From: Alphaproteobacteria bacterium
GTDB lineage: Bacteria > Pseudomonadota > Alphaproteobacteria > JAPOUT01 > G958296285
Length of the DNA: 64,000 bases
Assembly: GCA_965209065.1 (NCBI GenBank)
Contig: OZ242373.1
Coordinates: 646,202 to 710,201 of the forward strand
Direction: 5' to 3'
The translations under genes were made by a program, and so were the position numbers. This document shows positions 1,230 through 32,003 of this stretch, piece by piece. How positions within the stretch are numbered: position 1 is the first letter of the stretch; the number at the start of each line of letters is the position of its first letter. The notes beneath the pieces are model-generated. The model was not told the origin of the DNA and did not search any database. It saw nothing but the letters and a program-made list of their open reading frames with translations.

Positions 1230-3470
1230 CTATTGCGACACCTCATATTCCTCGATGCAAAAGAGCGTATGAAAGCCGAAACTCACATCTGTGCATTCGT
1301 GGGTCTTCAATTTTACTTTTTTATTGCGCTTTAAGATAATGTGATGACCCGGTTTTTTAGCAATTTTTGTCGCGGTTTTGAGGTGCGCGGAATTTGTCGA
1401 TTGCCCCCCAGCCACTTGTGGTGTAGCCATTTGTGACGTAACCACTTGTGGCGTAACCACTCGTGGTTGTTCGGGATTTCCTTCTGGTTCTTGAGTGATA
1501 GGTGATTGCGCAGGCGCTGCGCGTCCATCATCTGCCTCATCATCTATAGGAAGGTTATTAGCAGGAACAGCAAATTGAACATCATCAAGAGTTTCTATAG
1601 GTTGCCCAGGAAGTTTCTGGGGAAAAAACAAATTAAGCGAGGTCGCCCATTGATAGGTTGGCGGCATAAAATTTTCAGGCGTAAAAAGAATCCCCGTGAG
1701 CGTGATGTTATTTCCCGTAAGTCGCACCGACCTATCGGATAAAACTTCATAAACATCAGAAAATATTGTTAGGTCTCCTGATTTAGCGTTAATATCACTA
1801 AACAAGCTAATTTTATTAGTGGCAGTTAAACTAATATCTCTGTGCCGAGACGTAGCTTCTTGAGTGCTTTGAATAATTAATTCTCTTGCTTGCACATAAT
1901 TGCAAAGCTCTATGCTAGGCGCGTCTAGCTTAATGTTAGCCGTGCTAAACAAATTAACCAAAACCCTTAACGAAGACTCTGCCTCGATGCTAACATCATA
2001 ATTTAAGTTTATTGCTCTTGTGCTGTTAAATTCAATCTTGTTTCCTTTGATAGTTGTTTTTTGTTTCTCGGTGAAATGAATACTTCCGGTTGCCGTCTGT
2101 ATAAGAAAAATCACTTCCTTAGAAGCAGTATCTATGTCGCCATGGATAAAGATGTAAGAATCGGAATATATATGAACATCTATATCTGCTACAAAAGAAT
2201 AAACGTTAGTATCCTCCGCTGATAATGAAAAAAATGTTCCTGCCGTTAGGGAATTTATGTTGAAAAAATTTATGGCATTTTTGCTCGCATGTTGAGTGGT
2301 GAGGGCGCTGCCTAAAAGATTTAAGTCTATCTCCGAATAAACATCTAAAGTGCCCGTGCCAATGTTCGTAAAAGATAAGTCAAAATATCCACTAGGATAA
2401 TTTCCCATAAACATAGGAAACACCCTTTTATCATCTAACGATTGCGCCGCTTTGTTTATCAACACATAAGCATCGGCGGCGTTGATGCTACCCGAAAACC
2501 ATAAAGCATCTGTAAAATTGAAATTGAGGAGCGCGCCGTCCGTTTTGCCCTTAAATTCAGCGCCGACTTCAATTAAAATTTGCTTGGCTGGTTTGCGCGC
2601 TGTTCCTATTGATAATTTCTGAGTTGTGATGTCAGCATCGCCTGTTATTTCTATGTAATCGCCCAAAATAGTGAGGTTGCCTTCGGCTGTTGCGCTCACC
2701 GAAATTTTTCCGCTCGCTTTATCAATCGTAATTTTAGTCGCACTTACCATACCACCGAGATTAACGACGCTTGCGCGTAAATCAGTCATATCGTGGGGCA
2801 AAATGTTGATGCGCCCCTTCTCTGCCGTTAAGGTGCCGCCATTGCTTATCAAGGCGTTTAGTTTTTTCTTGCTAACCTCTATGCTAATGCCGCTTTCGGT
2901 GAAGGTAAGCATAATCTTTTCTCCCGAATAGAGGTCTATATCGCTTTTTGCGCTAGTGATAGTGCCTTGGTTGTCAATACTTTTAGAGATAAAGATAGCT
3001 CTGCTTTGAGTTGTAATAGCGCCCCTATTGGTAATAAAACCCTCGCTCACCGAAATGCTAAGGCGACCTAACCCCTGCGAAGTTTCATCGATGCGTCCCG
3101 CGATGGCTATCAGCGCGCCAACATTCACAACAGCGTTCGCTCCCAAATGCAGCCCCGCGGCGTTTTCTAATATAACCATACTATCGGCATTTAACGTGCC
3201 TCTAATCTGCGTGGCAGACTGGCTGCCAATTCTAGCAATATAACGACCCCCGCTCGGCTGAACAATGCGAACCGTTTCACCTGCATCTATATTGAAGCTA
3301 TCCCAAAACCCCACACCAACCTGCTGGCTTTGAGTAATGGTTAGCGTTTTATCATTCCTTGCCACTTGAGCTGAGCCCGCTAAGCTGCTTTCAACCGGCA
3401 AAGCAAATGCCTGCTCGCACAAAATGAAAGCAAAAATGAATACTAAAGTATTGTATTGTTTTTTTAACAT
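1230..3470 (-). CDS. TPS-domain (haemagglutination activity domain) secreted exoprotein, 746 aa, with Pro-rich linker and short C-terminal module
   Basis: N-terminal signal peptide MLKKQYNTLVFIFAFILCEQAFA. A TPS domain follows (WDSFNIDAGETVRIVQP...IRGTLNADSMVILENAAGLHLGANAVVNVGALIA). The middle is beta-helix-like with G/T/S/N-rich repeats. A Pro/Gln-rich linker (TPQVV pentapeptide repeats) precedes about 55 C-terminal residues. Confidence 0.75.
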   Translation of the reverse strand: MLKKQYNTLVFIFAFILCEQAFALPVESSLAGSAQVARNDKTLTITQSQQVGVGFWDSFNIDAGETVRIVQPSGGRYIARIGSQSATQIRGTLNADSMVILENAAGLHLGANAVVNVGALIAIAGRIDETSQGLGRLSISVSEGFITNRGAITTQSRAIFISKSIDNQGTITSAKSDIDLYSGEKIMLTFTESGISIEVSKKKLNALISNGGTLTAEKGRINILPHDMTDLRASVVNLGGMVSATKITIDKASGKISVSATAEGNLTILGDYIEITGDADITTQKLSIGTARKPAKQILIEVGAEFKGKTDGALLNFNFTDALWFSGSINAADAYVLINKAAQSLDDKRVFPMFMGNYPSGYFDLSFTNIGTGTLDVYSEIDLNLLGSALTTQHASKNAINFFNINSLTAGTFFSLSAEDTNVYSFVADIDVHIYSDSYIFIHGDIDTASKEVIFLIQTATGSIHFTEKQKTTIKGNKIEFNSTRAINLNYDVSIEAESSLRVLVNLFSTANIKLDAPSIELCNYVQARELIIQSTQEATSRHRDISLTATNKISLFSDINAKSGDLTIFSDVYEVLSDRSVRLTGNNITLTGILFTPENFMPPTYQWATSLNLFFPQKLPGQPIETLDDVQFAVPANNLPIDDEADDGRAAPAQSPITQEPEGNPEQPRVVTPQVVTSQMATPQVAGGQSTNSAHLKTATKIAKKPGHHIILKRNKKVKLKTHECTDVSFGFHTLFCIEEYEVSQ

Positions 3471-5480: not shown

Positions 5481-7173
5481 ATCGCTTTTTGTAGCTTTCC
5501 TTTTTCTTTTTTCTCATAACGATGGCTTTGCCTCGAGCGTGCGTCATTCAATCGCGATGTTTGGCGAGCCGCGTTATCGCGCGGAATTTTCTCACTTTGA
5601 TTATGTGAATCCCCACGCGCCGCGCGGCGGCGTGTTGAAGTTTTCGCAGCTTGGCACTTTTGACAGCCTCAACCCTTTAGCGCCGATTGGTGTTTCGGCT
5701 TTTGGTGTGCGTGAGCTTGTGTATGAAAGTTTGATGACGCGCTCGCTTGACGAGCCTTTTACGCTTTACGGCTTGTTAGCGGAAAAGGTTCAAGTTGCGG
5801 CGGATAGGAAGTCGGTTATTTGGTGGCTTCATCCTCGTGCGACATTTGCTGATGGCTCGCCGCTGCGTGTGGAGGATATTATTTTCTCCGCCGAAACTTT
5901 GCGCGAGCTTGGCAGACCCAATCATCGCTTTTACTATCGCCATATTGTGCGAATGGAGAAAATAGAAAAGCGAGCTATTCGTTTTACTTTTGACGAAAGC
6001 TCTAACTGGGAGATGCCTCTTATCATTGGGCTGATGCCGATTATTTCTAAAAAGCATTGGACGCGCCATCGTTTTGGCAAGGAGCGCGCGCGGACGCCCT
6101 TGGGTTCGGGTCCCTATCGCGTTGGCGAGATTGAGTTCGGCAAAAGGATAGTTTATACGCGCGATAAAAATTATTGGGGCAAGGATTTGGCGGTCAATCG
6201 CGGGCGTTATAATTTCAACCGCATTGAAATTGATTATTACCGCGACAATAGCGCGCGTTTTGAGGCTTTCAAGGCGGGTGCGTTTGATTTTTTTGAAGAG
6301 ACTTCGCCCACCCGCTGGGCGAAGGGCTATCAGTTTTCGCGGCTCAAACGCGGCGAGGTCGTCAAGAGGCAGTTCAGCTTAAAAACGCCTGCGCCAATGT
6401 GGGCGATTGCTTTCAATACGAGGCGGGCTTTATTTAAGAATAACGATGTGCGTCAAGCGCTCGCGCTTACTTTTGATGGCGCGTGGATAAATAAGAATTT
6501 GTTTTTCAGTTTGTGGCAACGCTCTTATAGTTTTTGGGGGCGGTCTAGTCTTGCGGGCAATTCACCAAAAGCAAGCGAGGCGAGCTTGCGCGAGCGCAAG
6601 CGCAAAGCCTTCGCTCTTTTCCAAAAAGCCGGTTGGCAAATTAAAAATAATAAATTAACGCAAATGAATGGCGAAGTTTTTACCTTCACGATTTTAGTCA
6701 AGACCCGCTTAAATGAACGGCTTGCGCTTGTTTGGGGTCGTCAGCTAAAGTCTTTTGGTATTCAGGCAGACATTCGCTTTATTGATGACAGCCAGTTCGA
6801 GCGGCGCAAGCAGAATTATGATTATGATGTTATTTTCGCGCACTGGTTTATGTCGCTGTCGCCGGGCAACGAGCAGGCTTACTACTGGAGCAGCGAGGCG
6901 GCGCGAACCAAAGGCAGCAGAAATTATGCGGGCGTGCGCTCTAGCGAGATTGACGGGCTTGTGAAGCAAATCAGCGATGCTAGAACGCGCGATGGGCTTG
7001 AACGCGCGGTCAAGCGGCTTGATAGGCTTTTGCTTCAGGGGCATTATGTCATTCCGCTATTTTTTGCCGAAAAGCAGTGGCTCGTGATGGATAAGAGGCT
7101 TAAAACGCCGCGCAAAGATAACTTTTACGGATACCGAATTGACACTTTATGGGATAGCGATAAAGCGAATTAA
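5440..7173 (+). CDS. Periplasmic substrate-binding protein, family 5 (YejA-like peptide/microcin C ABC transporter SBP), orphan
   Basis: 577 aa with an N-terminal signal peptide. [24 protein letters not shown] closely matches the E. coli YejA N-terminal region. The annotated start overlaps hspQ by 41 nt. No permease or ATPase genes are adjacent. Confidence 0.75.
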
Positions 7174-8261: not shown

Positions 8262-11200
8262 GTTCTTCCCTCTTTAGTTTTCCTAGCTCTTGAAGTATAT
8301 TTAACCCGATTTGGAGCTTCTCGTCAAGTTTTTGCTCCTCTAGTTTAATCAGCAAGCGGTGGTCGCTCATAAGGCGCGCGGTGCCTAAACTTTCTATCAG
8401 CGCAACAAGCCCTTTGAGGTTATCAAATTTATTTTTATGAAAACGCAAGCCGAGCTGCTTGCCTAAATCAAGCTCCTCAACGCCCGCGCTTTTGGCAGCA
8501 ACCTTCAGCCGCAGCGTCCAAAACAGCGCGGTGAGCTGCTTGGGAATAGAGCCAAACCTATCTTCAATTTCAGCTTGAAGCTCTATGAGCTCCTCGTCTT
8601 TATCCAGCTGGGCGATGCGGCGATAGAGCGTCAAGCGCACTTGCATATCGGGGATATAGCTTTCGGGTATCATAATCGCCACCGGCAGATGAATGCGCGG
8701 CGAAAAGCTCTCTTGTTTTTTGTCGAAGTTGCTTTGCCTCATCTCAACCGCCTCAGCGAGCATTCTCTGGTAAAGCTCATAGCCTATCTCCTTGATGTGC
8801 CCTGACTGGTCGCGCCCGAGCAGGTTGCCGGCACCGCGCGCGTCCAAATCCCGCGCGGCGAGAGAAAACCCCGCACCTAAAAACTGCGTGGCTTGTAGGG
8901 CGTGAAGTCTCTCTTCGGCTTGACGCGTTATCAGCAAATCGGGCGGGAGAGTAAAATAAGCATAGCCTTGCTTTTTGCCGCGCCCGATGCGCCCGCGCAG
9001 CTGGTGGAGCTGTGCGAGACCAAATTGATGCGCATGCCAAACCACGAGCGTATTGGCATTCGCAATATCTATGCCCGCCTCGACAATATGGGTGCTTAAT
9101 AAAACATCAGCCGCGCCATCATAAAAAATTCCTATCTGCTCCTCTAACTCTTGCGGCGCGAGCCTGCCGTGCGCCACCGCCACACGCAAGCCTGGCGTGT
9201 GAGTGAGCAAAAAGTTTTCTGCCTCCTCTAGATTCTTTATGCGCGGGCAAATGAAGAAACTTTGTCCGCCGCGTTTTTTTTCTCTTATCAAGGCTTGGCT
9301 GGTGGTCATCTGGTCAAAAGCACCGATAAAACTATGAACCGCCAGCCGCCCCAGCGGCGCATCGCCAATCAAAGACACCTCGCGCGCGCCCGATAAAGCA
9401 AGCTGCAACGTGCGCGGTATAGGCGTGGCGGTGAGCGTCAAAATATGAACATCATCGCGTATTTCTTTCAACCGCTCTTTATGCTGAACGCCAAAGTGTT
9501 GCTCTTCATCAACAATAACGAGTCCCAAATTATTAAACGCCATACTTTCGCTTAACAAAAAGTGCGTGCCGATAACAATATCCAGCGTCCCATCGGCGAG
9601 CGCTTGTCTTACCTCTTGCTTCTCTTTAACCGAAACCAACCGCGACAACTGCCCGACACGCAAAGGAAAATTCTCAAATCGTTTTCTAAAATTCTCATAA
9701 TGCTGACGACACAAGAGCGTTGTCGGCACAATAACCGCCACCTGCTTCCCCGACATAGCTTGAATAAAAGCCGTGCGCAAAGCAACTTCGGTCTTGCCGA
9801 AACCAACATCGCCACAAATCAGCCTATCCATTATTTTGCCCTTGCTTAAATCGGTCAAAACATCTTCAATCGCTTGAGCTTGGTCGGGGGTTTCCTCGAA
9901 GCCGAAGCCAGCGACAAACTCTTCGTAAAGCCCCGCTTGCGGTGTAAGCGGATTGCCAAGCGCGGTTTGCCGCTTCGCCGCAAGCGTGATGAGCTCGCCC
10001 GCCATTTCCCACAACCTTTTTTGGACGCGCTCTTTGCGCGTCTGCCACACCGAGCTGCCGAGCCTATCGAGCGCCACCTGCTCGCTGCCGCCGCCATAGC
10101 GCGAAATCAGGTCGGTGTTCTCCACAGGAACATAGAGCCTATCGCCGGCGGCATAATGAATCAGCAGGCAGTCGTGTTTTGCCCCCGCGACCTCTATCGG
10201 CGTGAGCGCAACAAAGCGACCGATGCCATGGTCGCGGTGCGTGATTAAATCGCCCGGCTGCAGAGCTTCGGCAAGTAGCAGCTCATCGCGCCGCTGTCGC
10301 CCCGAGCGGCTCAACCTGCGCCGCCGCCTTCGGCTACGCGTGCGCTTGCCTAAAATGTCCTCCTCGCAAAAAATGATGCTTTCGTCGGTTTCTATCCCGC
10401 GCTCTATGTCTAGGGGAATGAGCGACAAGGTTTTGCCCTTCTGTTGTCTTGCCTCGTCTAGCGTTCGTGCTTTTTGAAGCGTCCATTCCTCAAATAGACT
10501 TTCAATTCTCTCGCTTTGGACCGGCGTTGCCGCCGCGAGCCAAATCGGCTTGGTGCTTTTATCAATATAATGTTTCACCTCCTCCATAATTTTCTTATCC
10601 CCTGTAGCGCGCGCGGTAGAAAAATTATATGCTTCCCGATTAGAATAATTTTTCGCGTTCGGTGTCGTCTCAGCCTCAAAGGGAGATAGAGTTATGTTCG
10701 TGTGATTGCGCACGATGGATTGCAGTTTTTCATCGGTCAGGTAAAATCTATCGGGCGGAAGCGCTTTCTGCTTGCTATAAAGTCTGCCCTCATAGCATGT
10801 TTTAATCATTATCTCCCTGTCTTCCGCCAAAGACAAAATGCTCTCGTTATAAACAAGGATAGCCTCTTTAAGATAAGTAAAAATTGTTTCCAACCGCGGA
10901 TAAAACAACGGAAGATATTGCTCTACCCCTTTAACCGACCTGCCGGCGGTTATCGCCGCATAAAGCAAATCGCTTTCGGGCGCAAACCCAAATTCATCTA
11001 TGTAAGCCTGCTGGAATCGCTTTTGCGTTTTTGGATTGATAATCACTTCACTCGCAGGGTAAAGCCTAATGCTTTCGATTTTTTCCAAACTCATCTGGCT
11101 TTCGCTATCAAATAAGCGAAGACTTTCTATCTCATCGCCGAGAAAATCCAGCCGAACCGGATTCAAACTATTGGCGGGATAAACATCAATGATACCGCCG

Positions 11201-11652
11201 CGCACCGCATATTCCCCTTCGTTGGCAACAAGCTCGACACGCTGATAGCCGCTTTCGGCAAGAAATGTTTCCAAGGCACTAAAGGCATAAACCCCTCCCG
11301 CTTTTATCTCTAAGGAAGGAAAGGAATCTTGTGGCGGCACCTTTTGCATCGCCGAAGCCAGAGAAGCAATCAAAATCATGTTTTTGGTAGGCTTTGCTAT
11401 TCTCGCCAACGCAGCCGTGCGCATCGCCGCTATATGAACCGAAGGCGAAAAACTATCATAAGGCAAGCAATCGTAAGCAGGAACGTATAAAGCCTCCGCG
11501 CGCGGCGCAAAAAAGTTAAGCGAAGACAAAGCCCGTGTCGCTTTTATCTCGTCCTCAACAAGCCAGAGAATAGGACGCCCATACTCCGCCGAAAGCTCGG
11601 CAATCGCTTTTCCCTCTATGCCATCTAGAATGCCGCCAATGCTATTTATCAT
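8233..11652 (-). CDS. mfd: Transcription-repair coupling factor Mfd
   Basis: 1139 aa. Superfamily-2 helicase motifs [32 protein letters not shown]. The UvrB-homology N-terminus and C-terminal TRCF domain are collinear with Mfd. Confidence 0.9.
10270..10345 (-). repeat. Arg-rich low-complexity insertion inside mfd ([21 protein letters not shown])
   Basis: GC-rich cgccgccgcc run; it encodes a poly-Arg tract in the linker before the helicase core. Confidence 0.6.
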
Positions 11653-12001
11653 TTTGGTGAAACTGCCTTATGCGCTCTATAATTTGCTGGTGCCGCTGCG
11701 GGGGAGTGGCACCCATTATCCAATCATAAATATCAGGGTCTTTTTCTTCCAGTAAATCCTCAAAGGCTTGGAGCGCCGCCTCATTAAGCCGCCCAGACGC
11801 GAGCATCTCGGACGCGAGCATCTCGGACGCGAGCGTCCCCGACACAAGCATCTGAGACGCGAGCGTCCCCGACACAAGCATCTGAGACGCGAGCGCCCAT
11901 GACGCGAAACGCCCGAGTAGTAAGTCCAGCTCTTTTGTTCCCCTGCGCCACGCCCGATACCGCGCGCGGCGGCAACGTTGTTCTAGGTTTGGCATATTCA
12001 C
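11642..12001 (-). CDS. sdhE: Succinate dehydrogenase assembly factor SdhE (DUF339) carrying in-frame tandem repeats
   Basis: 119 aa. It has the RGxxE motif (RRGTKELDLLLGRF). Its position between mfd and divergent recG is the conserved alphaproteobacterial arrangement. It is about 30 aa longer than typical because of internal repeats. Confidence 0.65.
   Translation of the reverse strand: MNMPNLEQRCRRARYRAWRRGTKELDLLLGRFASWALASQMLVSGTLASQMLVSGTLASEMLASEMLASGRLNEAALQAFEDLLEEKDPDIYDWIMGATPPQRHQQIIERIRQFHQNDK
11796..11890 (-). repeat. In-frame tandem repeats inside sdhE: 15-nt unit x2 (gacgcgagcatctcg) followed by 30-nt unit x2
   Basis: Read directly from the sequence. It encodes LASQMLVSGT LASQMLVSGT LASEM LASEM. 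Confidence 0.85.
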
Positions 12002-14162: not shown

Positions 14163-17100
14163 TTAAGGCGCGGGCGCGGGCGCTTCTTTAGGCGTCTCGT
14201 CTGTTTGCGTTTCTTCAAGCAAGGCGGCTTGCTCGCTTGCTTTGTGGCGCAAGGCTTGGATAAACCGCCCGGTGCCGACAGGAATCAACCGCCCAACAAT
14301 AACATTTTCCTTGAGCCCCGACAGCCTATCAACCTTGCCGTTGATAGCAGCTTCGGTGAGGACGCGCGTGGTTTCTTGGAAACTCGCCGCCGAAATAAAC
14401 GAGCGCGTTTGCAAGCTCGCCTTTGTGATGCCAAGCAAAACAGGTTTTGCTTTGATTGGATTTTTACCTTCAGCAATAAGTTTAGCGTTCTCGTTTTCAC
14501 AATCGATTTTCTCAACCTGCATACCTTCGCGCAAGAGGCTGTCGCCGCTATCGGTAATTTCAACTTTGCGCAACATCTGCCTGAGGATAATTTCAATATG
14601 CTTATCGTTAATGCCCACGCCTTGTAAGCGGTAAATTTCTTGGACGCTATCAATCATATAGTGCGCGAGGTCTTGAATGCCACCGATAGCGAGAATATCA
14701 TGCGGGTCGGGGTTGCCATCAACAAGCGTGTCTCCCTTTTCTACCTCATCGCCATCGGCAATGAGCAAGTGGCGGTCCTTAGAAATTTTATATTCAACAA
14801 CATCATCATCTTTATTATCAGGGTGAAGCAGAATGAGACGGCGCGTTTTATAACCCTTAGCAAACTCAATCCTGCCATTTATTTTAGCGAGAATAGCTTG
14901 GTCGCGCGGTTGGCGCGCCTCAAACAGCTCTGCCACACGCGGCAAGCCGCCGGTGATGTCTCTCGTTTTCGTGCTTTCTGTCGGAATACGCGCGAGCGTA
15001 TCTCCCGCCTTGACCGACTGCTGCGGCTCGGCAGACAAAATAGCGTCAGGCGAAAGCAAATAACGTGCTTCCCTATCGTCTATCGTAACGATTTTACCTT
15101 TTTTATCTTTAATCACAAGCGCAGGCACAAGCTCCGCGCCTTCCGATTGCGTGCTCCAGTCGATAACCACACGCTGGGTAATGCCCGTGGCTTCATCGGT
15201 TACCTCTTTAATCGAAACGCCATCGACAATATCCTCGTAGAAAACATCGCCATTCGCTTCGCTAATGATAGGTCGGGTGTAGTGGTCCCACTCAGCGATG
15301 TGCGTTCCCTTGCTTACCTTGCTGTTGTTTTTCACATTGAGCTTCATGCCCGAACGAAGCTTTTGATTCATACGCTCAACGCCATTTTCATCTACCAGCT
15401 TTAAGATGTTTTTCTTACCGCGCCCCATCACAATGATTTCACCCGCGCTATTGGTGGCAATATCTATATTCTCTATTTGGACTTTGCCGTCATCAATCGC
15501 TTCCAAGAAGGACTGGCTGACAATTTGCGCCGCACCGCCAATGTGGAAAGTGCGCATGGTTAATTGCGTTCCCGGTTCCCCAATGCTTTGCGCCGCCATA
15601 ATACCAACGGCTTCACCCATATTGACCTCCGTGCCACGCGCGAGGTCTCTGCCATAACAGGTGGCGCAAACGCCATCTTTTATTTGACACATCAAAGGTG
15701 TGCGCACTTCTATCTCGTGCATACCCAAAGCCTCAATATCTTGCGCGACTTCTTCGGTAATCATTTCACCAGCCTTGGCGATAACCTTCCTTTTGTTTTG
15801 TGGGTCAGTAATGTTTTTCGCCGGCGCGCGACCAATAATACGCACCGCAAGAGAAACCAAAGTGCTAGAAGATTCTTCAACCGCGCTCATAATGATGCCC
15901 TCATCAGTGCCGCAGTCTTCCTCCGTGACGACGCAATCTTGCGCGACATCCACCAGCCTTCTCGTCAAATAGCCAGAGTTCGCCGTTTTAAGCGCCGTAT
16001 CCGCTAACCCCTTACGCGCACCATGCGTAGAGTTAAAGTATTCTAAAACGGTCAGCCCTTCCTTAAAGTTAGAAATAATCGGCGTTTCAATAATTTCACC
16101 CGAAGGCCGCGCCATAAGCCCGCGCATACCAGCAAGCTGCTTCATCTGCGTGGGAGAACCCCGCGCACCCGAATGCGCCATCATGTGCAAAGAATTCACC
16201 GGCTCTACTTTATCGGTCTTCTTATCTATCTTGGGAGAGGAAATTTCTTTCATCATAACCTCGGCTACCCTGTCGGTGCATTTAGACCAAGCGTCAATCA
16301 CTTTATTGTATTTCTCACCGCGCGTTATCAGCCCTTCGGCATATTGGTGCTCAAACTCATTCACCAGAACATGGGTTTCGTCTATCAAAGCCTGCTTCCC
16401 TTGCGGCACGAGCATATCGTCCTTGCTGAGCGAAATGCCCGCAGAGCACGCCTCGCGAAAACCGAGCCCCATCATTTTATCGCAGAAAACCACCGTCGCC
16501 TTCTGCCCGCAATGGCGATAGACGCTGTCAATTAGCCCCGAAATCTCTTTCACCGTTAGCAAGCGATTGACAAGCTCAAAAGGCAAATTAGGATGGTGAG
16601 GCAAAAACTCGCCTATCATCATTCTGCCGGGCGTGGTTTCGACAATTTCCACAACCTCTTCGCCCTGCCGATTGACAGAACGGCGGCGCGCTCTAATGTT
16701 AGCGTGAATCGACAGATGCCCGCTATCCAAAGCCATCTTAATCTCCGCCATAGAGCCGTAAGATGTGTTCTCACCCTTTTCTTTGTCAATTTGCTGGGAG
16801 ATATAATAAAGCCCAAGCACAATATCTTGGCTCGGCACGATAATCGGGTCGCCGTTGGCGGGGTGGAGAATGTTATTGCTCGCCATCATCAAGACGCGCG
16901 CCTCAAGCTGCGCTTCAAGCGAAAGAGGCACATGAACCGCCATCTGGTCGCCATCGAAATCGGCGTTGAAAGCCGCGCACACCAGCGGATGAAGTTGAAT
17001 AGCCTTACCCTCAATCAAAACGGGCTCGAAAGCCTGCACGCCTAAGCGATGCAAAGTGGGCGCGCGGTTCAACAAAATCGGGTGTTCGCGAATGACTTGG

Positions 17101-23480: not shown

Positions 23481-24214
23481 TGTTTTGCCTCGCTCGAATC
23501 TAGACTCTTAGAGTCAAGACTCTTAGAGTCGAGACTCTTAGGATCAACCGACAGCCCGATACCCATGGTTGAGCTAAGAGTTATCTTTTTAAGATACCCT
23601 CCTTTGGTAGCAGCAGGCTTGGCTTGAATAAGTTTATCAAGCAGCGCGCGCGCGTTGCCGAGAATGTTTTCTTCCGAGAAGCTCGCCTTGCCAATGCCGA
23701 CATGAATAATACCCGCTTTTTCTACACGAAACTCAACCGCGCCTTGCTTGATGGACTGAACCGTTTTTTCAACATCCATCGTGACCGTTCCGGTTTTAGG
23801 ATTTGGCATAAGACCGCGCGGTCCCAACACCTTGCCTAGCTTGCCGACAATCGGCATCATATCAGGCGTGGCGATACATCTATCAAAGTTAATCTCGCCC
23901 TTTTCTATTGTTTCTGCCAAATCCTCCGCGCCGATAATATCAGCGCCAGCGCTTTTCGCTTCGTCAGCCTTCGCCCCTTTAGCAAACACCGCAATACGCA
24001 CCGTCCGCCCCGAACCATGCGGTAATTCACACACACCGCGCACCATCTGGTCAGATTGCTTAGGGTCTATGCCGAGATTAACCGCCAAATCAATCGTTTC
24101 ATCAAATTTAGCGACAGCACTTTGCTTCACAAGCTGAACCGCTTTGACAAGGTCATAAAGTTCATCGTTTTCAATGCCCTCTCTTATTTTTTTGCTACGC
24201 TTACCTCTAATCAC
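23477..24214 (-). CDS. rplA: 50S ribosomal protein L1 with C-terminal repeat extension
   Basis: 245 aa. The conserved core ends ...[11 protein letters not shown] and is followed by [21 protein letters not shown]. Confidence 0.9.
23503..23547 (-). repeat. Three tandem 15-nt units, each containing the hairpin GACTCttaGAGTC, in-frame at the 3' end of rplA
   Basis: Read directly from the sequence: gactcttagagtcaa / gactcttagagtcga / gactcttaggatcaa. Confidence 0.85.
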
Positions 24215-26915: not shown

Positions 26916-26989
26916 TGGAGCGGGCGAAGGGAATCGAACCCTCATCTTCAGCTTGGAAGGCTGCGGCTCTACCATTGAGCTACGCCCGC
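26916..26989 (-). tRNA. tRNA-Gly (anticodon UCC)
   Basis: The minus-strand sequence GCGGGCGTAGCTCAATGGTAGAGC...CTTCCAA...GGGTTCGATTCCC is closely similar to E. coli glyT. Confidence 0.85.
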
Positions 26990-27071
26990 ATAACCGAAAA
27001 AGGACGAATTCCGCTTTTGCCACCCATCTCGTTTTCTGCGAGCTTTCCTCACCCCAAGGGCTGCCTTGCTT

Positions 27072-27156
27072 TGGTGGAGGGAGTTGGATTTGAACCAACG
27101 TAGGCATAGCCAACGGGTTTACAGCCCGTCCCCTTTAACCACTCGGGCACCCCTCC
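27072..27156 (-). tRNA. tRNA-Tyr (anticodon GUA), long variable arm
   Basis: 85-nt class II tRNA with anticodon loop CTGTAAA. It is in the typical tyr-gly-tuf arrangement. Confidence 0.85.
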
Positions 27157-27436: not shown

Positions 27437-28648
27437 ATGCTACAAGTTTTACAACAAGATTTTGAAAATATAAAAGATCATTTTAACGAGCTTAATATGG
27501 ACGAATCTCATTTTGAAAATTCTAACGATATATGCACTCCATTAGAATGTGTCAAAGAGATGGTTGATGTTATCCCCAAAGAGTTTTGGAAAAGGAAAAG
27601 CCTTAAAATACTAGATAGTTGTTGTGGCAATGGAAATTTTCACGCTTACATCCAAACAAAAACAAATTTGAAAAATTTATACTTCAATGAGATAAACAAG
27701 AAACGGGTAAAAAATGCTCTAAATATATTTGGGGAAAGCATAAATATAACAACACAGGATTTCCTGTCATTTCCAGACAAAGAGGGATTTGATTTGGTCG
27801 TTTCAAATCCTCCTTATGCTAAATTTAATAATGGTATTAGGGTATCTAAAAATCATAACCTATCTAGAGATTTCATATTAAAAGCACTCAAAATCACTAA
27901 AATTAACGGATATATTTTATTTATTGCTCCAAATAATTGGATGTCGTTTTCCAATAGAAATTTATTACCGTCATTAATGAGTCAATATCAGTTTATCCAC
28001 TTAAACATCAATGGAGCAAAAAAATGGTTTCCAAAAGTTGGCTCATCTTTTACTTGGTTTCTATTGAAAAAAGTACCAAACAAGAAGCCCTTCAAAATAG
28101 AAAATGGCTATATTAAAAATGACATCCAACTTGCTAGACTAGATAGAGGTGTTAATTTTATCCCCCTTTATTATTCAAAAGAGACAAGAGCAATTTTTAA
28201 TAAAACCATCAACGCAAAAAATAAAAAGTATAAAATAGAGACTTCTAGTGATTTACATCATTATACAAAAAAGCACTTGTTGCGGGATAGCTCAAGCGAG
28301 AGATTTTGCTATAAACTAATCCATACTCCAACGCAAACCGCTTGGAGCTCTGTGCCTCATAAATATCAAACGGGATGGAAGGTTTTTATTTCCCTAACGA
28401 ATCAATACCAAACTTTCATAGATAATTGTGGAATGACGCAAAGCGTCGCATTTATTCGTTGTAAATCAAAAAAGGAGGCATTAAAGGTGGAAAAAGAATT
28501 GAATAATAATGTTTTTAAGTTCCTTAATAATTTAACACGATACGGCAATTTCAATAATGTTAAAGTATTACAACAATTTCCGCTTTTTTCTCAAGTTAGA
28601 TTAACTGACAAAGAAAAACTTTTTATTGAATATTTTTTAAGGACTTAA
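27437..28648 (+). CDS. N6-adenine DNA methyltransferase (gamma-class amino-MTase; motif I DSCCGNGNF, motif IV NPPY)
   Basis: 403 aa in a markedly AT-rich region. FxGxG-like motif I (LDSCCGNGNFHAY) and the catalytic NPPY; about 250 C-terminal aa are consistent with a target-recognition domain. Confidence 0.7.
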   Translation: MLQVLQQDFENIKDHFNELNMDESHFENSNDICTPLECVKEMVDVIPKEFWKRKSLKILDSCCGNGNFHAYIQTKTNLKNLYFNEINKKRVKNALNIFGESINITTQDFLSFPDKEGFDLVVSNPPYAKFNNGIRVSKNHNLSRDFILKALKITKINGYILFIAPNNWMSFSNRNLLPSLMSQYQFIHLNINGAKKWFPKVGSSFTWFLLKKVPNKKPFKIENGYIKNDIQLARLDRGVNFIPLYYSKETRAIFNKTINAKNKKYKIETSSDLHHYTKKHLLRDSSSERFCYKLIHTPTQTAWSSVPHKYQTGWKVFISLTNQYQTFIDNCGMTQSVAFIRCKSKKEALKVEKELNNNVFKFLNNLTRYGNFNNVKVLQQFPLFSQVRLTDKEKLFIEYFLRT

Positions 28649-28650
28649 CA

Positions 28651-29172
28651 ATGGCAAGTAAGTATAATAAAAATGATAGGCCATTAAAAAAGCTAGAAGA
28701 TTTATTTAATGAACTGAACTATAGCCAATTCCCTTATAAAAAGCACTTCATTCACTTGTGTAACATTACACCTGATGCTGAAAATGAAAAACTTGAAATA
28801 AAGAGTTTAGGAAATGATAAAAAGATTAATGATAAAGGTGTAGTATATGTCTTTGTTATAGGGAAAAAGATATTCAAGATAGGAAGTAGTACGGTTTCTA
28901 TAAAAGAAAGAATCGGCTCTTATAACTCTGGCAAAATTCTATACAGAGGGGCAGGAACTAACTCTACCACAAATTACTTTGTTCTACAAAGTTTTATTAA
29001 AATAGGCAAAGTCGTGAAAGTTTACGCCTACTTTCCCAATAAAAAACATTATACAATTTTTGGAGAAAAAGGGGTTGAAGCTTTCCCGCCCGCTAAAAAA
29101 ATAGAAAAAAAGATTTTAACTGATTTAAAGAAAAAATATGATCGTTTGCCAATAGGATGTAGCCAAAAATAA
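28651..29172 (+). CDS. Small GIY-YIG-like nuclease candidate (putative cognate restriction endonuclease)
   Basis: 173 aa, starting 2 nt after the MTase stop. GVVYVFVIGKKIFKIGSS...KERIGSY resembles the GIY...YIG...R core. Same low-GC composition as the MTase. Confidence 0.45.
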   Translation: MASKYNKNDRPLKKLEDLFNELNYSQFPYKKHFIHLCNITPDAENEKLEIKSLGNDKKINDKGVVYVFVIGKKIFKIGSSTVSIKERIGSYNSGKILYRGAGTNSTTNYFVLQSFIKIGKVVKVYAYFPNKKHYTIFGEKGVEAFPPAKKIEKKILTDLKKKYDRLPIGCSQK

Positions 29173-29313
29173 GAAAAACTAAAAACCTTACAAGATGCCC
29201 AGTATCTCCATGTCTAACAGCCTTGAAAATATAGCCTGAGTTGATTGCCTCTTGACAGAATGAAAAAAGCCCCTATCCTTACCCTTTAGGAATTTTTACC
29301 ACTCGGAGGAAAT

Positions 29314-30060
29314 ATGAGAAATATCAGCGGCGAAACTATTATCATTACTGGTGCCTCTTCCGGCTTTGGCGCCGAAACTGCACGAATGCTCGTCAAGGAC
29401 AAGGGCGCGAATGTCGTCTTGGGTGCTCGGCGCGCCGAAAAACTTCAGGAGCTCATCAAGGAACTCGGCGCGGATAAGGCTATCGCCAAGCCGTGCGATG
29501 TCCGCAAGTGTGATGACCTCAAGGCTCTCGCCGCCGCTGGTGTCGAGAAGTTCGGCACCATCGATGGTCTCGTCAATAACGCCGGGATTATGCCTCTGTC
29601 TATGCTCGCCGCCGGGCGCACCGACGAGTGGGACGATATGATAGACACCAACATCAAGGGCGTGCTTTATGCCATCAATGCCGTGCTGCCCATAATGATA
29701 AAAAATGAGAAGGGCTCGATTGTCAATATCTCTTCGGTTGCGGGCAGACGCGTTAGCCCCGCGGCGGCGGTCTATTCGGGGACGAAGTTCGCGGTGCACG
29801 CCATCTCTGAGGGATTGCGCCAAGAGGTCGCGCCCCATAAGATTCAAGTTTGTTGTGTTTATCCCGGCGCCTTCCAAACCGAGCTTGCTGGCTCTATCAA
29901 GGACGACAAGGTGCTGGAGATGGTGCGGAAAAGATTTAGTGGCGCGGGTGCTATCGGCGATGCGAAGCACATCGCGAATGCGATTGTGTTTGCTTTGAGT
30001 CAAGACCCATCGGTAGCGGTGAACGAGCTGATGCTGCGCCCTGTCGCACAAGATATGTAG
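29314..30060 (+). CDS. Short-chain dehydrogenase/reductase (SDR) family oxidoreductase
   Basis: 248 aa. TGASSGFGAETAR (TGxxxGxG), NNAG, and the catalytic YSGTKFAV (YxxxK). High GC, in contrast to the flanking AT-rich genes. Confidence 0.85.
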   Translation: MRNISGETIIITGASSGFGAETARMLVKDKGANVVLGARRAEKLQELIKELGADKAIAKPCDVRKCDDLKALAAAGVEKFGTIDGLVNNAGIMPLSMLAAGRTDEWDDMIDTNIKGVLYAINAVLPIMIKNEKGSIVNISSVAGRRVSPAAAVYSGTKFAVHAISEGLRQEVAPHKIQVCCVYPGAFQTELAGSIKDDKVLEMVRKRFSGAGAIGDAKHIANAIVFALSQDPSVAVNELMLRPVAQDM

Positions 30061-30155
30061 CACCACAGCGAGACCTTAAAAGATATATCAGGCACGGAAA
30101 TATGGTGCCTGCTTGCCAATAGCTTGACTGACTTTTAATTTTAGTTCATTATTTA

Positions 30156-31910
30156 ATGCAATTCAATCAAACACAAGGGGGAAAGTGTATGCCATCACCT
30201 GAAATCGAAAGCGGAAAAATATTGGTAAAGAAAATTTTCTCTGAACTATGGTTTCGCATCCCAGAATACCAACGCCCATACGTCTGGGGAAATGATGAAG
30301 TAAATAATTTGCTAGACGACATTTCCTATGCTATGCAAGGTGCGTCTGATTCTGAATACTTTTTGGGTTCCTTCGTTTATCAAACTAAACCACCTAATCC
30401 TGCTGCTAATATTCCATTTCAGGAGTATGATTTGCTAGATGGGCAGCAACGCATGATCACGCTTTTGTTGTTATTCTCTGTTATAAGGGATTTGACAAAA
30501 GATGAAGACGACAAAAAAGAATGTCAAAAGTGTATTTTTGTAGAAGCTGAACCTAGACGCAAGATTCCCGAGCGCTCTCGGATTACTTTTGGCATTCGCC
30601 AAGGCGCACAGAATTTTATTGAAACCCTAGTGAAGGAAAAAGGTTTTACCTTAAACAATGAATCACTAATGGACTATGAAAAATCAGGCAATGATACCAG
30701 CATCCAAAATATGGCTAAGGCTATTGGTTATATCAAAAAATTCTTTGCCAATAATACAAATATCAAATTTAATAAACTATTAGAATTTATTTTAAATAAA
30801 GTTTTACTGATCTATGTTTCTACCGAAAATCTAGATGATGCATTTCGGTTATTTACCATATTGAATGCTCGCGGCGTCTCCCTGCGTAATAGCGACATCT
30901 TGAAATCTATCAACCTTGGAGCTTTAACTACTGAGAAAGATAAAGAGAAATATGCTAAGCTTTGGGAAGATGCGGAAAGTGAATTAGGTGAAGAATTTGA
31001 CCGCTTCCTCCATTTCATTCGCACACTATTGGTAAAAGAAAAATCTCGCCTTAGCCTGTTGCAAGAGTTTGAAAATAAAATCTACAAACCTAAAAGCGCA
31101 GGGCAAAAGAAGCCATTACTAGCTAAAGGAAAAGCAACCTTCGAAATGGTGGATAAGCACTTAAAGCTATACCAGAAATTGTTCAATGATTCAAACTACG
31201 ATCTAACCAAAAGTTTTGAATTTGATAATCTTCTCAAAGTGATGAGAATTGGGATACCTTCTTCCGACTGGATTCCGCCATTGCTACATTATTACAATAA
31301 GTTTGGAAAAACGCGCCTCTATAATTTCTTGCAAATACTCGATAACAAGTTTTCAACAGATTGGATTATACGAGAAACACCAACGGCACGTACTGAGGCA
31401 ATGAATGCTGTTATCAAGGCTATTGACAAAAGTAAGACTGCCAATGATGTGTTCTATTCAAAAGACCTGAATATAATAGATTACGATGAGTTACAGCAAA
31501 CGCTAGAAAGCAAAATATATGGCAAGCCATTTGCTCGCTATATCCTTTTGAAGTTGGATTATCATTTCCGAAGCCATGATCAAAAAATGAACTTTGAGAC
31601 CTTATCCGTTGAGCATATACTTCCGCAAACTCCCAAATCAAGCAGTCAGTGGGTGAAAGATTTTAGTGAAGATGAAAGACTTGAGCTAACAAATACACTT
31701 GGTAATCTTGTATTGATTACACGTCGCAAAAACACATCTCAGGGGCGGCTTGATTACACGGAAAAGAAAAAACGCTATTTCGAGAAAAATATAGACACAT
31801 GCCCAAATTCTTTACGAGTTTTGCAAAAATACAACCAATGGACGCCTAAACAACTAAAAGAAAACCATAAGCTTGTTATCAAAAAACTCATGAAGTATTA
31901 TCCTCGCTAA
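30156..31910 (+). CDS. DUF262/DUF1524 two-domain protein (GmrSD-like type IV modification-dependent restriction enzyme family)
   Basis: 584 aa, AT-rich. N-terminal ParB/DUF262 motif (IPEYQRPYVWGNDEV; DGQQR). C-terminal DUF1524 His-Me finger-like region (SVEHILPQTP ... LGNLVLITRRKNTSQG). Confidence 0.7.
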   Translation: MQFNQTQGGKCMPSPEIESGKILVKKIFSELWFRIPEYQRPYVWGNDEVNNLLDDISYAMQGASDSEYFLGSFVYQTKPPNPAANIPFQEYDLLDGQQRMITLLLLFSVIRDLTKDEDDKKECQKCIFVEAEPRRKIPERSRITFGIRQGAQNFIETLVKEKGFTLNNESLMDYEKSGNDTSIQNMAKAIGYIKKFFANNTNIKFNKLLEFILNKVLLIYVSTENLDDAFRLFTILNARGVSLRNSDILKSINLGALTTEKDKEKYAKLWEDAESELGEEFDRFLHFIRTLLVKEKSRLSLLQEFENKIYKPKSAGQKKPLLAKGKATFEMVDKHLKLYQKLFNDSNYDLTKSFEFDNLLKVMRIGIPSSDWIPPLLHYYNKFGKTRLYNFLQILDNKFSTDWIIRETPTARTEAMNAVIKAIDKSKTANDVFYSKDLNIIDYDELQQTLESKIYGKPFARYILLKLDYHFRSHDQKMNFETLSVEHILPQTPKSSSQWVKDFSEDERLELTNTLGNLVLITRRKNTSQGRLDYTEKKKRYFEKNIDTCPNSLRVLQKYNQWTPKQLKENHKLVIKKLMKYYPR

Positions 31911-31926
31911 AATATAAGAGAAAAAT

Positions 31927-32003
<77 letters not shown>

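Follow-up and report, generated by a model that had tools for sequence, protein, structure and literature searches.

The window, meaning the whole 64-kb stretch of DNA that we analysed, contains five arrays of tandem 15-nt units, all in minus-strand open reading frames (ORFs). In particular, sdhE, which encodes the FAD assembly factor SdhE/Sdh5 (11642..12001, minus strand; Pfam PF03937, E = 1.5e-21), contains an array of seven 15-nt units (11794..11895, minus strand); rplA, which encodes ribosomal protein L1, contains a C-terminal tail array, (AAGAGTCTNGAYTCN) x3, encoding KSLDS x3 (23502..23547, minus strand); the gene for a 746-aa TpsA-like protein contains a C-terminal linker array with the unit CCACAAGTGGTTACG (PQVVT; 1412..1471, minus strand); the gene for a 1488-aa TpsA (TPS1488) contains an exact duplication, GTCCCTCGGGACTCA x2, encoding VPRDS x2 (36286..36320, minus strand); and the gene for a 3760-aa TpsA (TPS3760) contains the array (GACACAAGYGCCCAA) x3, encoding SAQDT x3 (40179..40228, minus strand). 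Tandem Repeats Finder (TRF) and our own scan both recover the five arrays, confirming that the 15-nt arrays listed in a first-pass annotation of this DNA are genuine, and the translations of all five bear out its statement that the duplications keep the reading frame. A sixth 15-nt duplication exists only in another strain's contig (L009), in the gene for a family-5 solute-binding protein (SBP), at a site just behind the signal peptide (5530..5547, plus strand). The claim that such duplications recur therefore holds; the number given with it, six or more places, is reached only with that strain's SBP gene, since the window has five arrays. The array genes still match their own Pfam families (Sdh5, Ribosomal_L1, TPS, and SBP_bac_5).

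TRF returned 43 rows for the 64-kb window. Leaving aside the 108-nt Sel1 repeats at the right end of the window, all rows scoring at least 60 have a period of 15 or 30. Specifically, TRF reports 6.7 copies of period 15 for sdhE (also scored as period 30 x 3.4), 2.7 copies with 96% matches for rplA, 3.7 copies with 82% matches for the 746-aa protein, 2.3 copies with 95% matches for TPS1488, and 3.4 copies with 91% matches for TPS3760. Our own scan, which looked for near-perfect tandem duplications spanning 20 nt or more, found period 15 at five loci and period 30 in sdhE, period 9 at two loci, period 12 at two loci, and otherwise no period of 18-60 nt in the window outside the Sel1 gene. When exact 12-mers were tracked for recurrence at a constant spacing, offset 15 was seen at four loci, offset 30 at two, and offsets 6 and 36 at one locus each. 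Two weak period-15 TRF rows, at 29493 and 61005, represent chance similarity: they fall in a conserved SDR domain and a conserved response-regulator domain, respectively, and both are invariant between strains. The Arg-rich linker of mfd (10270-10345), which the first-pass annotation had listed as something other than a 15-nt repeat, is indeed a separate low-complexity stretch. The Sel1-repeat protein (62630-63979) has 11 Sel1 repeats in Pfam, with a 108-nt-period array of ~9-11 copies at 71-72% identity.

For comparison between strains, we used contigs of ENA sample/assembly ERZ25069786, comprising L005-L013 and an unlinked locus, L014. The same-species contigs are 98.0-99.6% identical to the window and have a coverage of 3.5-8.8x. 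At the six array loci, the differences between the window and L005-L013 are 15 or 30 nt only. Assembly or sequencing error, named in advance by the first-pass annotation as what would undo the pattern, is ruled out by these independent same-species contigs. Some of the low-coverage contigs (3.5-8.8x) do have 1-nt indels that split genes, as an artefact would lead one to expect; however, besides the window genome, as many as three independent contigs show the array at a given locus, with consistent unit sequences and with lengths that differ only by whole units, leaving an artefactual origin effectively refuted. Annotators should be warned that length variants of these arrays are real and not errors.

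The sdhE array is made up of 15 nt x2 (ASEML), 30 nt x2 (ASQMLVSGTL), and a diverged edge unit (WALAS), and reads ...WALAS QMLVS GTLAS QMLVS GTLAS EMLAS EMLAS GRL... in translation. SdhE is 117-119 aa long here, compared with 84-91 aa in the nearest array-free homologues, and the array splits the Sdh5 Pfam match in two, between profile positions about 28 and 29. Searched against 1.84 billion representatives, SdhE matched 149 of its 150 best homologues only over query residues 1-37 and 69-113, indicating that the insertion has no counterpart among the best-scoring SdhE relatives. More distant SdhE proteins have a single EWLAS at the array position. In an AlphaFold2 model, the core of SdhE has pLDDT values of 83-89, and the insertion residues 43-65 have values below 50 and form a low-confidence protrusion. 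The strain alleles, 117, 112, and 107 aa in length, are separated by whole pentapeptides, with the arrays of other strains shorter by 15 and 30 nt relative to the window, and their units also stand in different orders.

The rplA array lies beyond the end of the L1 domain (residue 219 by Pfam). The number of units is one in contig L005 (P0121, 235 aa) and three in L006 (P0122, 245 aa), corresponding to a length difference of −30 nt between a strain contig and the window. In the two lineages closest to this one (82% and 80% identity), L1 is 232 aa long and terminates in ...DPKTLSEAK and ...DPKTISEAK, free of repeats; the nearest named relatives (Hyphomicrobiales, Parvibaculum-like alphaproteobacteria) are only 65-69% identical to the window L1. 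Because distant SdhE and L1 orthologues are without the units, we take the insertions to be lineage-specific gains, in agreement with the earlier view of insertions in this lineage that also affect conserved genes. The rplA units differ from each other at 1-3 of 15 positions, all synonymous. Copies within arrays, such as these, diverge more than the strains do, and the arrays may therefore be older than the strain split or fast-mutating. The rplA array contains six GANTC sites (the CcrM methylation site of alphaproteobacteria) within 42 nt (23496-23537), and GANTC is rarer than expected in the window as a whole, with 119 sites against about 200 expected from shuffles; a role of this site in the arrays was dropped from consideration, as it is present in only two arrays and is globally under-represented.

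The arrays in TpsA-like and solute-binding proteins vary in the same manner. The array of the 746-aa protein reads TPQVV TSQMA TPQVA and has three internal units in the window, five in L009, three in L010, and four in L011, a change of +15/+15 and +15 nt relative to the window, in steps of +15 or +30 nt. The TPS1488 array sits after the signal peptide and before the TPS domain, which starts at residue 98 (Pfam), and the duplication is present in the window genome only; L012 and L013 (P0146 and P0165; 1483 aa) are single-copy (−15 nt). The TPS3760 array is located in one ~1.1-kb internal repeat of its gene, and the paralogous internal repeats of the same gene are without the array. In both L012 and L013, TPS3760 has one extra unit, GACGCGAGCGCCCAA (+15 nt), at different positions of the array, yielding a protein of 3765 aa in L013. 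For the SBP, the window has the shortest allele, ASSVRHS; L010 and L011 have ASSHASVRHS (+9 nt); and L009 has ASPHAGVRHASVRHS, a further +15 nt, with the unit CACGCGRGCGTGCGN and the reading HAGVR HASVR. Based on the Pfam domain limits and the AlphaFold2 model of SdhE, the arrays lie outside folded domains, at sites where insertions are tolerated. Three giant TpsA-like genes (1488, 3760, and 3290 aa) stand one after another at 32061-57817, the 3760-aa gene has internal repeats of about 1.1 kb at 68-77% identity, and further TpsA paralogues of 1350-5897 aa are present elsewhere in the genome.

Besides 15 and 30 nt, multi-base indels in the aligned 46 kb are of 9 nt at three places and of 12 nt at two. 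A 9-nt variable indel lies at the 3′ end of the SBP gene (7154-7162; LWDSDKAN versus LWEAN), and a strain-variable 12-nt quasi-duplication lies at 41761 in the 3760-aa gene; neither is a clean tandem duplication. The mfd gene of L010 has 9 extra nt (3 aa) near the N-terminus (about 11396), in a CGC/GCC-rich stretch. The tail of rpoC (14163-14200; L010:19030-19080) contains a (GCGCGG)n hexanucleotide repeat, and that of L010 has an 18-nt tandem duplication and one hexamer fewer, for a net +12 nt. On a larger scale, the strains differ in a defence island (27437-31910) between tRNA-Tyr/Gly (26916-27156) and tRNA-Met (31927-32003): the window and L006 encode an Eco57I-like N6-methyltransferase, a 173-aa ORF, an SDR, and a GmrSD-type nuclease, and L005 (1-6800) encodes a HaeIII-like endonuclease, a D12 methyltransferase, and a phage-type integrase, with only the SDR of the window set retained.

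The unit length is non-randomly concentrated at 15 nt in the window region, as the first-pass annotation had supposed. As background, we used 0.61 Mb of metagenome contigs obtained from a motif scan, minus the arrays that had selected them; period 15 accounts there for 26 of 168 in-frame arrays of at least 9 nt (15%, probably an over-estimate). Against this background, period 15 is in excess both among the near-perfect arrays of the window (5 of 10; binomial p = 0.011) and among the clean strain-variable arrays (6 of 8; binomial p = 2.9e-4). The 15-nt bias is thus real locally, in the window region; the window was picked for showing the pattern, so the apparent density of arrays is inflated. 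A genome-wide signature, as proposed by the first-pass annotation, is not evident, since the unlinked 26.9-kb locus L014 of the species contains no tandem duplication of any period. There is also no pentapeptide duplication in five TpsA paralogues of the same genome (12,987 aa), and strain alleles of TpsA paralogues elsewhere differ by 1, 2, 4, and 5 residues. A preference for 15 nt throughout the genome, if there is one, would be a clean natural case of a length-specific, hairpin-associated duplication bias in a bacterium, and would offer a handle on the replication or repair activities that set the size of de novo tandem duplications.

We considered whether these are ordinary coding variable-number tandem repeats (VNTRs) that share a 15-nt period by coincidence in a small, pre-selected sample, with no length bias of the lineage at all. 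Arrays of 15-nt units are common in nature: in the metagenome motif scan, a single arbitrary 9-mer motif occurring three times at 15-nt spacing matched more than 120 contigs, which on inspection were unrelated 15-nt VNTRs. The 15% background share, the array-free locus L014, the paralogue alleles differing by 1, 2, 4, and 5 aa, the 9-, 12-, and 18-nt indels of the same region, and a p value of just 0.011 for the window-only test all point the same way. Yet six independent loci share the period, and one of them, the SBP of L009, was found only afterwards and contributes to the 6 of 8 (p = 2.9e-4). The hairpin content that the units have in common (p = 1.8e-4, see below) is likewise not expected from coincidence, and we regard coincidence as unlikely. 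The literature search turned up no specific precedent for a 15-bp bias.

As to mechanism, the best clue lies in the hairpins of the units, which the first-pass annotation had not noticed. Imperfect inverted repeats with arms of 4-6 bp are present in five of the six units: GACTCT-A-AGAGTC in rplA (6-bp arms); GGGACT-G-AGTCCC (6-bp arms) and GTCCC-TC-GGGAC in TPS1488; GACGC-GA-GCGTC in sdhE and CACGC-GA-GCGTG in the SBP (5-bp arms each); and CCAC-GA/AA-GTGG in the 746-aa protein (4-bp arms). The TPS3760 unit has no palindrome, its longest arm being 2 bp. For random 15-mers of the window, the probabilities of arms of at least 4, 5, and 6 bp are 0.17, 0.037, and 0.0056, respectively, giving a Fisher combined p of 1.8e-4 for the enrichment of inverted repeats, often centred on C-GA-G, in the six units. 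Arms of at least 5 bp are found in 16% of metagenomic 15-nt arrays, as compared with four of six here. GA- or TC-centred palindromes are not over-represented elsewhere in the window (33 outside arrays). DNA folding gave modest z-scores, from −1.2 to −2.3, for five of six arrays and nil for TPS3760; on one strand, the sdhE array folds no better than shuffles (z = +0.13).

Some of the base changes within arrays make palindromes more perfect. In the SBP of L009, a GC-to-CG change extends the palindrome arms from 5 to 7 bp, and three nearby changes bring no gain in pairing. In the extra TPS3760 unit, ACA is changed to GCG, and the A-to-G change completes CGC-GA-GCG; one of two changes improves pairing. 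In rplA, both changes improve pairing, yet each is the only synonymous option or one of few. Template switching at quasi-palindromes, as described in PMC7202029, makes hairpins more perfect, and the changes in the SBP of L009 and in TPS3760 are suggestive of it; they are suggestive only, because the other nearby changes do not improve pairing. The likeness to quasi-palindrome mutagenesis in the E. coli reporters of PMC7202029 is twofold: the sites are imperfect inverted repeats, and some of the clustered changes (SBP of L009, extra TPS3760 unit) perfect the palindrome. It differs in that the classical events described there are multi-base substitutions and small indels that perfect a hairpin, whereas the events here are fixed-length tandem duplications and only some of the changes improve pairing.

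We regard the arrays as probably, though not securely, the result of hairpin-assisted slippage or template switching that gives rise to in-frame minisatellites and reshapes them, with selection retaining those at tolerated sites. In hairpin-capable stretches, a 15-nt segment would be copied twice during replication, by strand slippage or by a short template switch. Once two copies are present, units would frequently be gained, lost, and exchanged, leaving co-occurring strains with different copy numbers and orders. Survival would be limited to in-frame events in permissive protein segments, namely the C-terminal tail of L1, a surface loop in SdhE, the mature N-termini that follow signal peptides, and the linkers of giant secreted TpsA proteins. 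We infer slippage or template switching as the generating step from the sequences of units and alleles; for repeats shorter than 30 bp, replication slippage has been argued (PMC2884548). Plain slippage does not predict one unit length, and this counts against the proposal. Fifteen may be the shortest in-frame length that accommodates a mini-hairpin with a 5-6-bp stem plus junction bases, with misalignment rarer at greater distance; against this geometric argument, 12 and 18 nt would be permitted as well. MutS-type repair deals with loops no larger than about 4 nt, and 15-nt loops are beyond that range. The link to mismatch repair suggested by the first-pass annotation is therefore unlikely; mismatch repair was rejected as the relevant pathway on this ground, and the activities to look at are single-strand exonucleases, flap processing, and hairpin nucleases.

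Sharing of sequence between arrays bears on whether patches move from one array to another. In roughly 200 kb of species DNA scanned, the 9-mer ACGCGAGCG occurs only inside three arrays, and the 15-mer AGACGCGAGCGCCCA is common to the sdhE array (11884-11898, plus strand) and the extra TPS3760 unit (L012:6316-6332, L013:6301-6317). Under the null, a common substring of at least 12 nt between arrays has a probability of about 0.006 per pair, and the sharing of the 15-mer is only suggestive once some 15 or more array pairs are corrected for. The ordinary TPS3760 unit agrees with the sdhE 15-mer at 13 of 15 positions, needs two transitions for full identity, and looks locally derived. Given this match and the many pairs compared, it is equally likely that the units converged on a stable GC-rich hairpin and that one locus was copied into another. 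For most array pairs, the shared sequence does not exceed chance expectation. A shared or mobile 15-nt motif was rejected as a candidate, since GACRCRAGY and ACGCGAGCG are essentially confined to arrays; in the species DNA scanned, there is no dispersed single-copy family, and the motif is found only in arrays. The Rickettsia palindromic elements are very small repeats that insert in frame. Small dispersed repeats of cyanobacteria, as cited in PMC2884548, are like the arrays in being short, partly palindromic, located in genes, and compatible with the frame, and the 9-mer and the 15-mer common to unlinked arrays add to the likeness. The difference from small mobile or dispersed repeats is that the six arrays have mostly unrelated units, which seem to be of local origin.

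A dedicated process of fixed length was weighed against these observations. The first duplication would be enzymatic, by fill-in of 15-bp staggered nicks at palindromes or by recopying of a 15-nt patch after a switch, and slippage would then amplify it; candidate agents would be a structure-specific nuclease cutting with a 15-nt stagger and a polymerase or primase recopying about 15 nt. In favour, units of different sequence all have one length, they are palindromic, as two-fold symmetric enzymes prefer, TPS1488 is an exact two-copy duplication, and ACGCGAGCG is confined to three arrays of the roughly 200 kb scanned. The presence of the complete 15-mer AGACGCGAGCGCCCA in both sdhE and the extra TPS3760 unit (null ~0.006 per pair) would also be explained if the process took patches from other arrays. 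Nevertheless, no element, scar, or candidate enzyme is seen at or near any array, the palindromes lie off-centre in the duplicated unit, and the TPS3760 unit, already 13 of 15 identical to the sdhE 15-mer, looks local, with the sharing only suggestive after correction. No mobile element is present in any array allele, and no transposase is seen in the window. Set against the footprint of a transposon target-site duplication, the unit length is fixed and TPS1488 is an exact two-copy case, but the copy number exceeds two in most arrays. We therefore consider an enzymatic first duplication of fixed length distinctly unlikely, and give a similarly low probability to the specific form in which 15-nt patches are duplicated or pasted at C-GA-G-centred hairpins, occasionally from another array.

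Selection at the protein level for pentapeptide modules, by length tuning or by antigenic variation of surface proteins, appears very unlikely. Secreted or periplasmic proteins account for four of the six arrays (three in TpsA-like proteins, one in the SBP), these arrays vary between co-occurring strains, and the differences between rplA units are all synonymous, all of which is compatible with such selection. Against it, the identical period is found in cytoplasmic SdhE and in ribosomal protein L1, and the pentapeptides of the six array loci, SBP included, are mutually unrelated (ASEML, DSKSL, TPQVV, VPRDS, SAQDT, and HASVR). The SdhE, L1, 746-aa, SBP, 1488-aa, and 3760-aa proteins gave no match to Pfam pentapeptide repeats of the PF00805 type, whose A(D/N)LXX-like units fold as a beta-helix, and selection on the protein demands multiples of 3 at most, with no reason for exactly five codons.

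The arrays are ordinary slippage-type coding minisatellites (VNTRs) with an unusually uniform unit length, and not a new kind of system. By TRF and our scan, the units stand head to tail with a period of 15 or 30, in 2.3-6.7 copies, within the range of about 10-100 nt that defines coding VNTRs; whole-unit variation between strains is found at all six loci; and the units are multiples of 3 that keep the frame and leave the protein recognisable. The arrays resemble the bacterial coding minisatellites known from MLVA typing and from surface proteins in having in-frame, head-to-tail units whose copy number and order vary between strains, in being mostly in secreted proteins and linkers, and in the presumed role of slippage. 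They differ from typical coding VNTRs in that nearly all clean arrays have one unit length and contain short inverted repeats, and in that two of them are in small housekeeping proteins (SdhE and L1). Slipped-strand hairpins take part in triplet-repeat expansion, and polymerases elongate palindromic repeats in vitro. The arrays are like such hairpin-stabilised expansions in that the units that can fold back are those that expand; they differ in having units of 15 nt rather than 3-8 nt and in having few copies (2-7).

The arrays provide strain-typing markers for this alphaproteobacterium, whose genome is small, and they demonstrate tolerance at defined positions of two conserved proteins: a 30-residue insertion in SdhE and a 10-residue tail extension in L1. 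Among other L1 homologues, P0001 (406 aa) and P0003 (322 aa), from contigs of ~1.2 kb, have a partial second L1 domain; they probably arose in assembly as chimeras of two strains and have nothing to do with the 15-nt arrays. In a related lineage (P0009, P0012, P0127, and P0130; genomes of 1.85-1.94 Mb), L1 has variants of 234, 240, and 246 aa, and the tail varies by six-residue units of the IQPGAA type, i.e. with an 18-nt period. The L1 tail is a general hotspot, with a period that differs between lineages.
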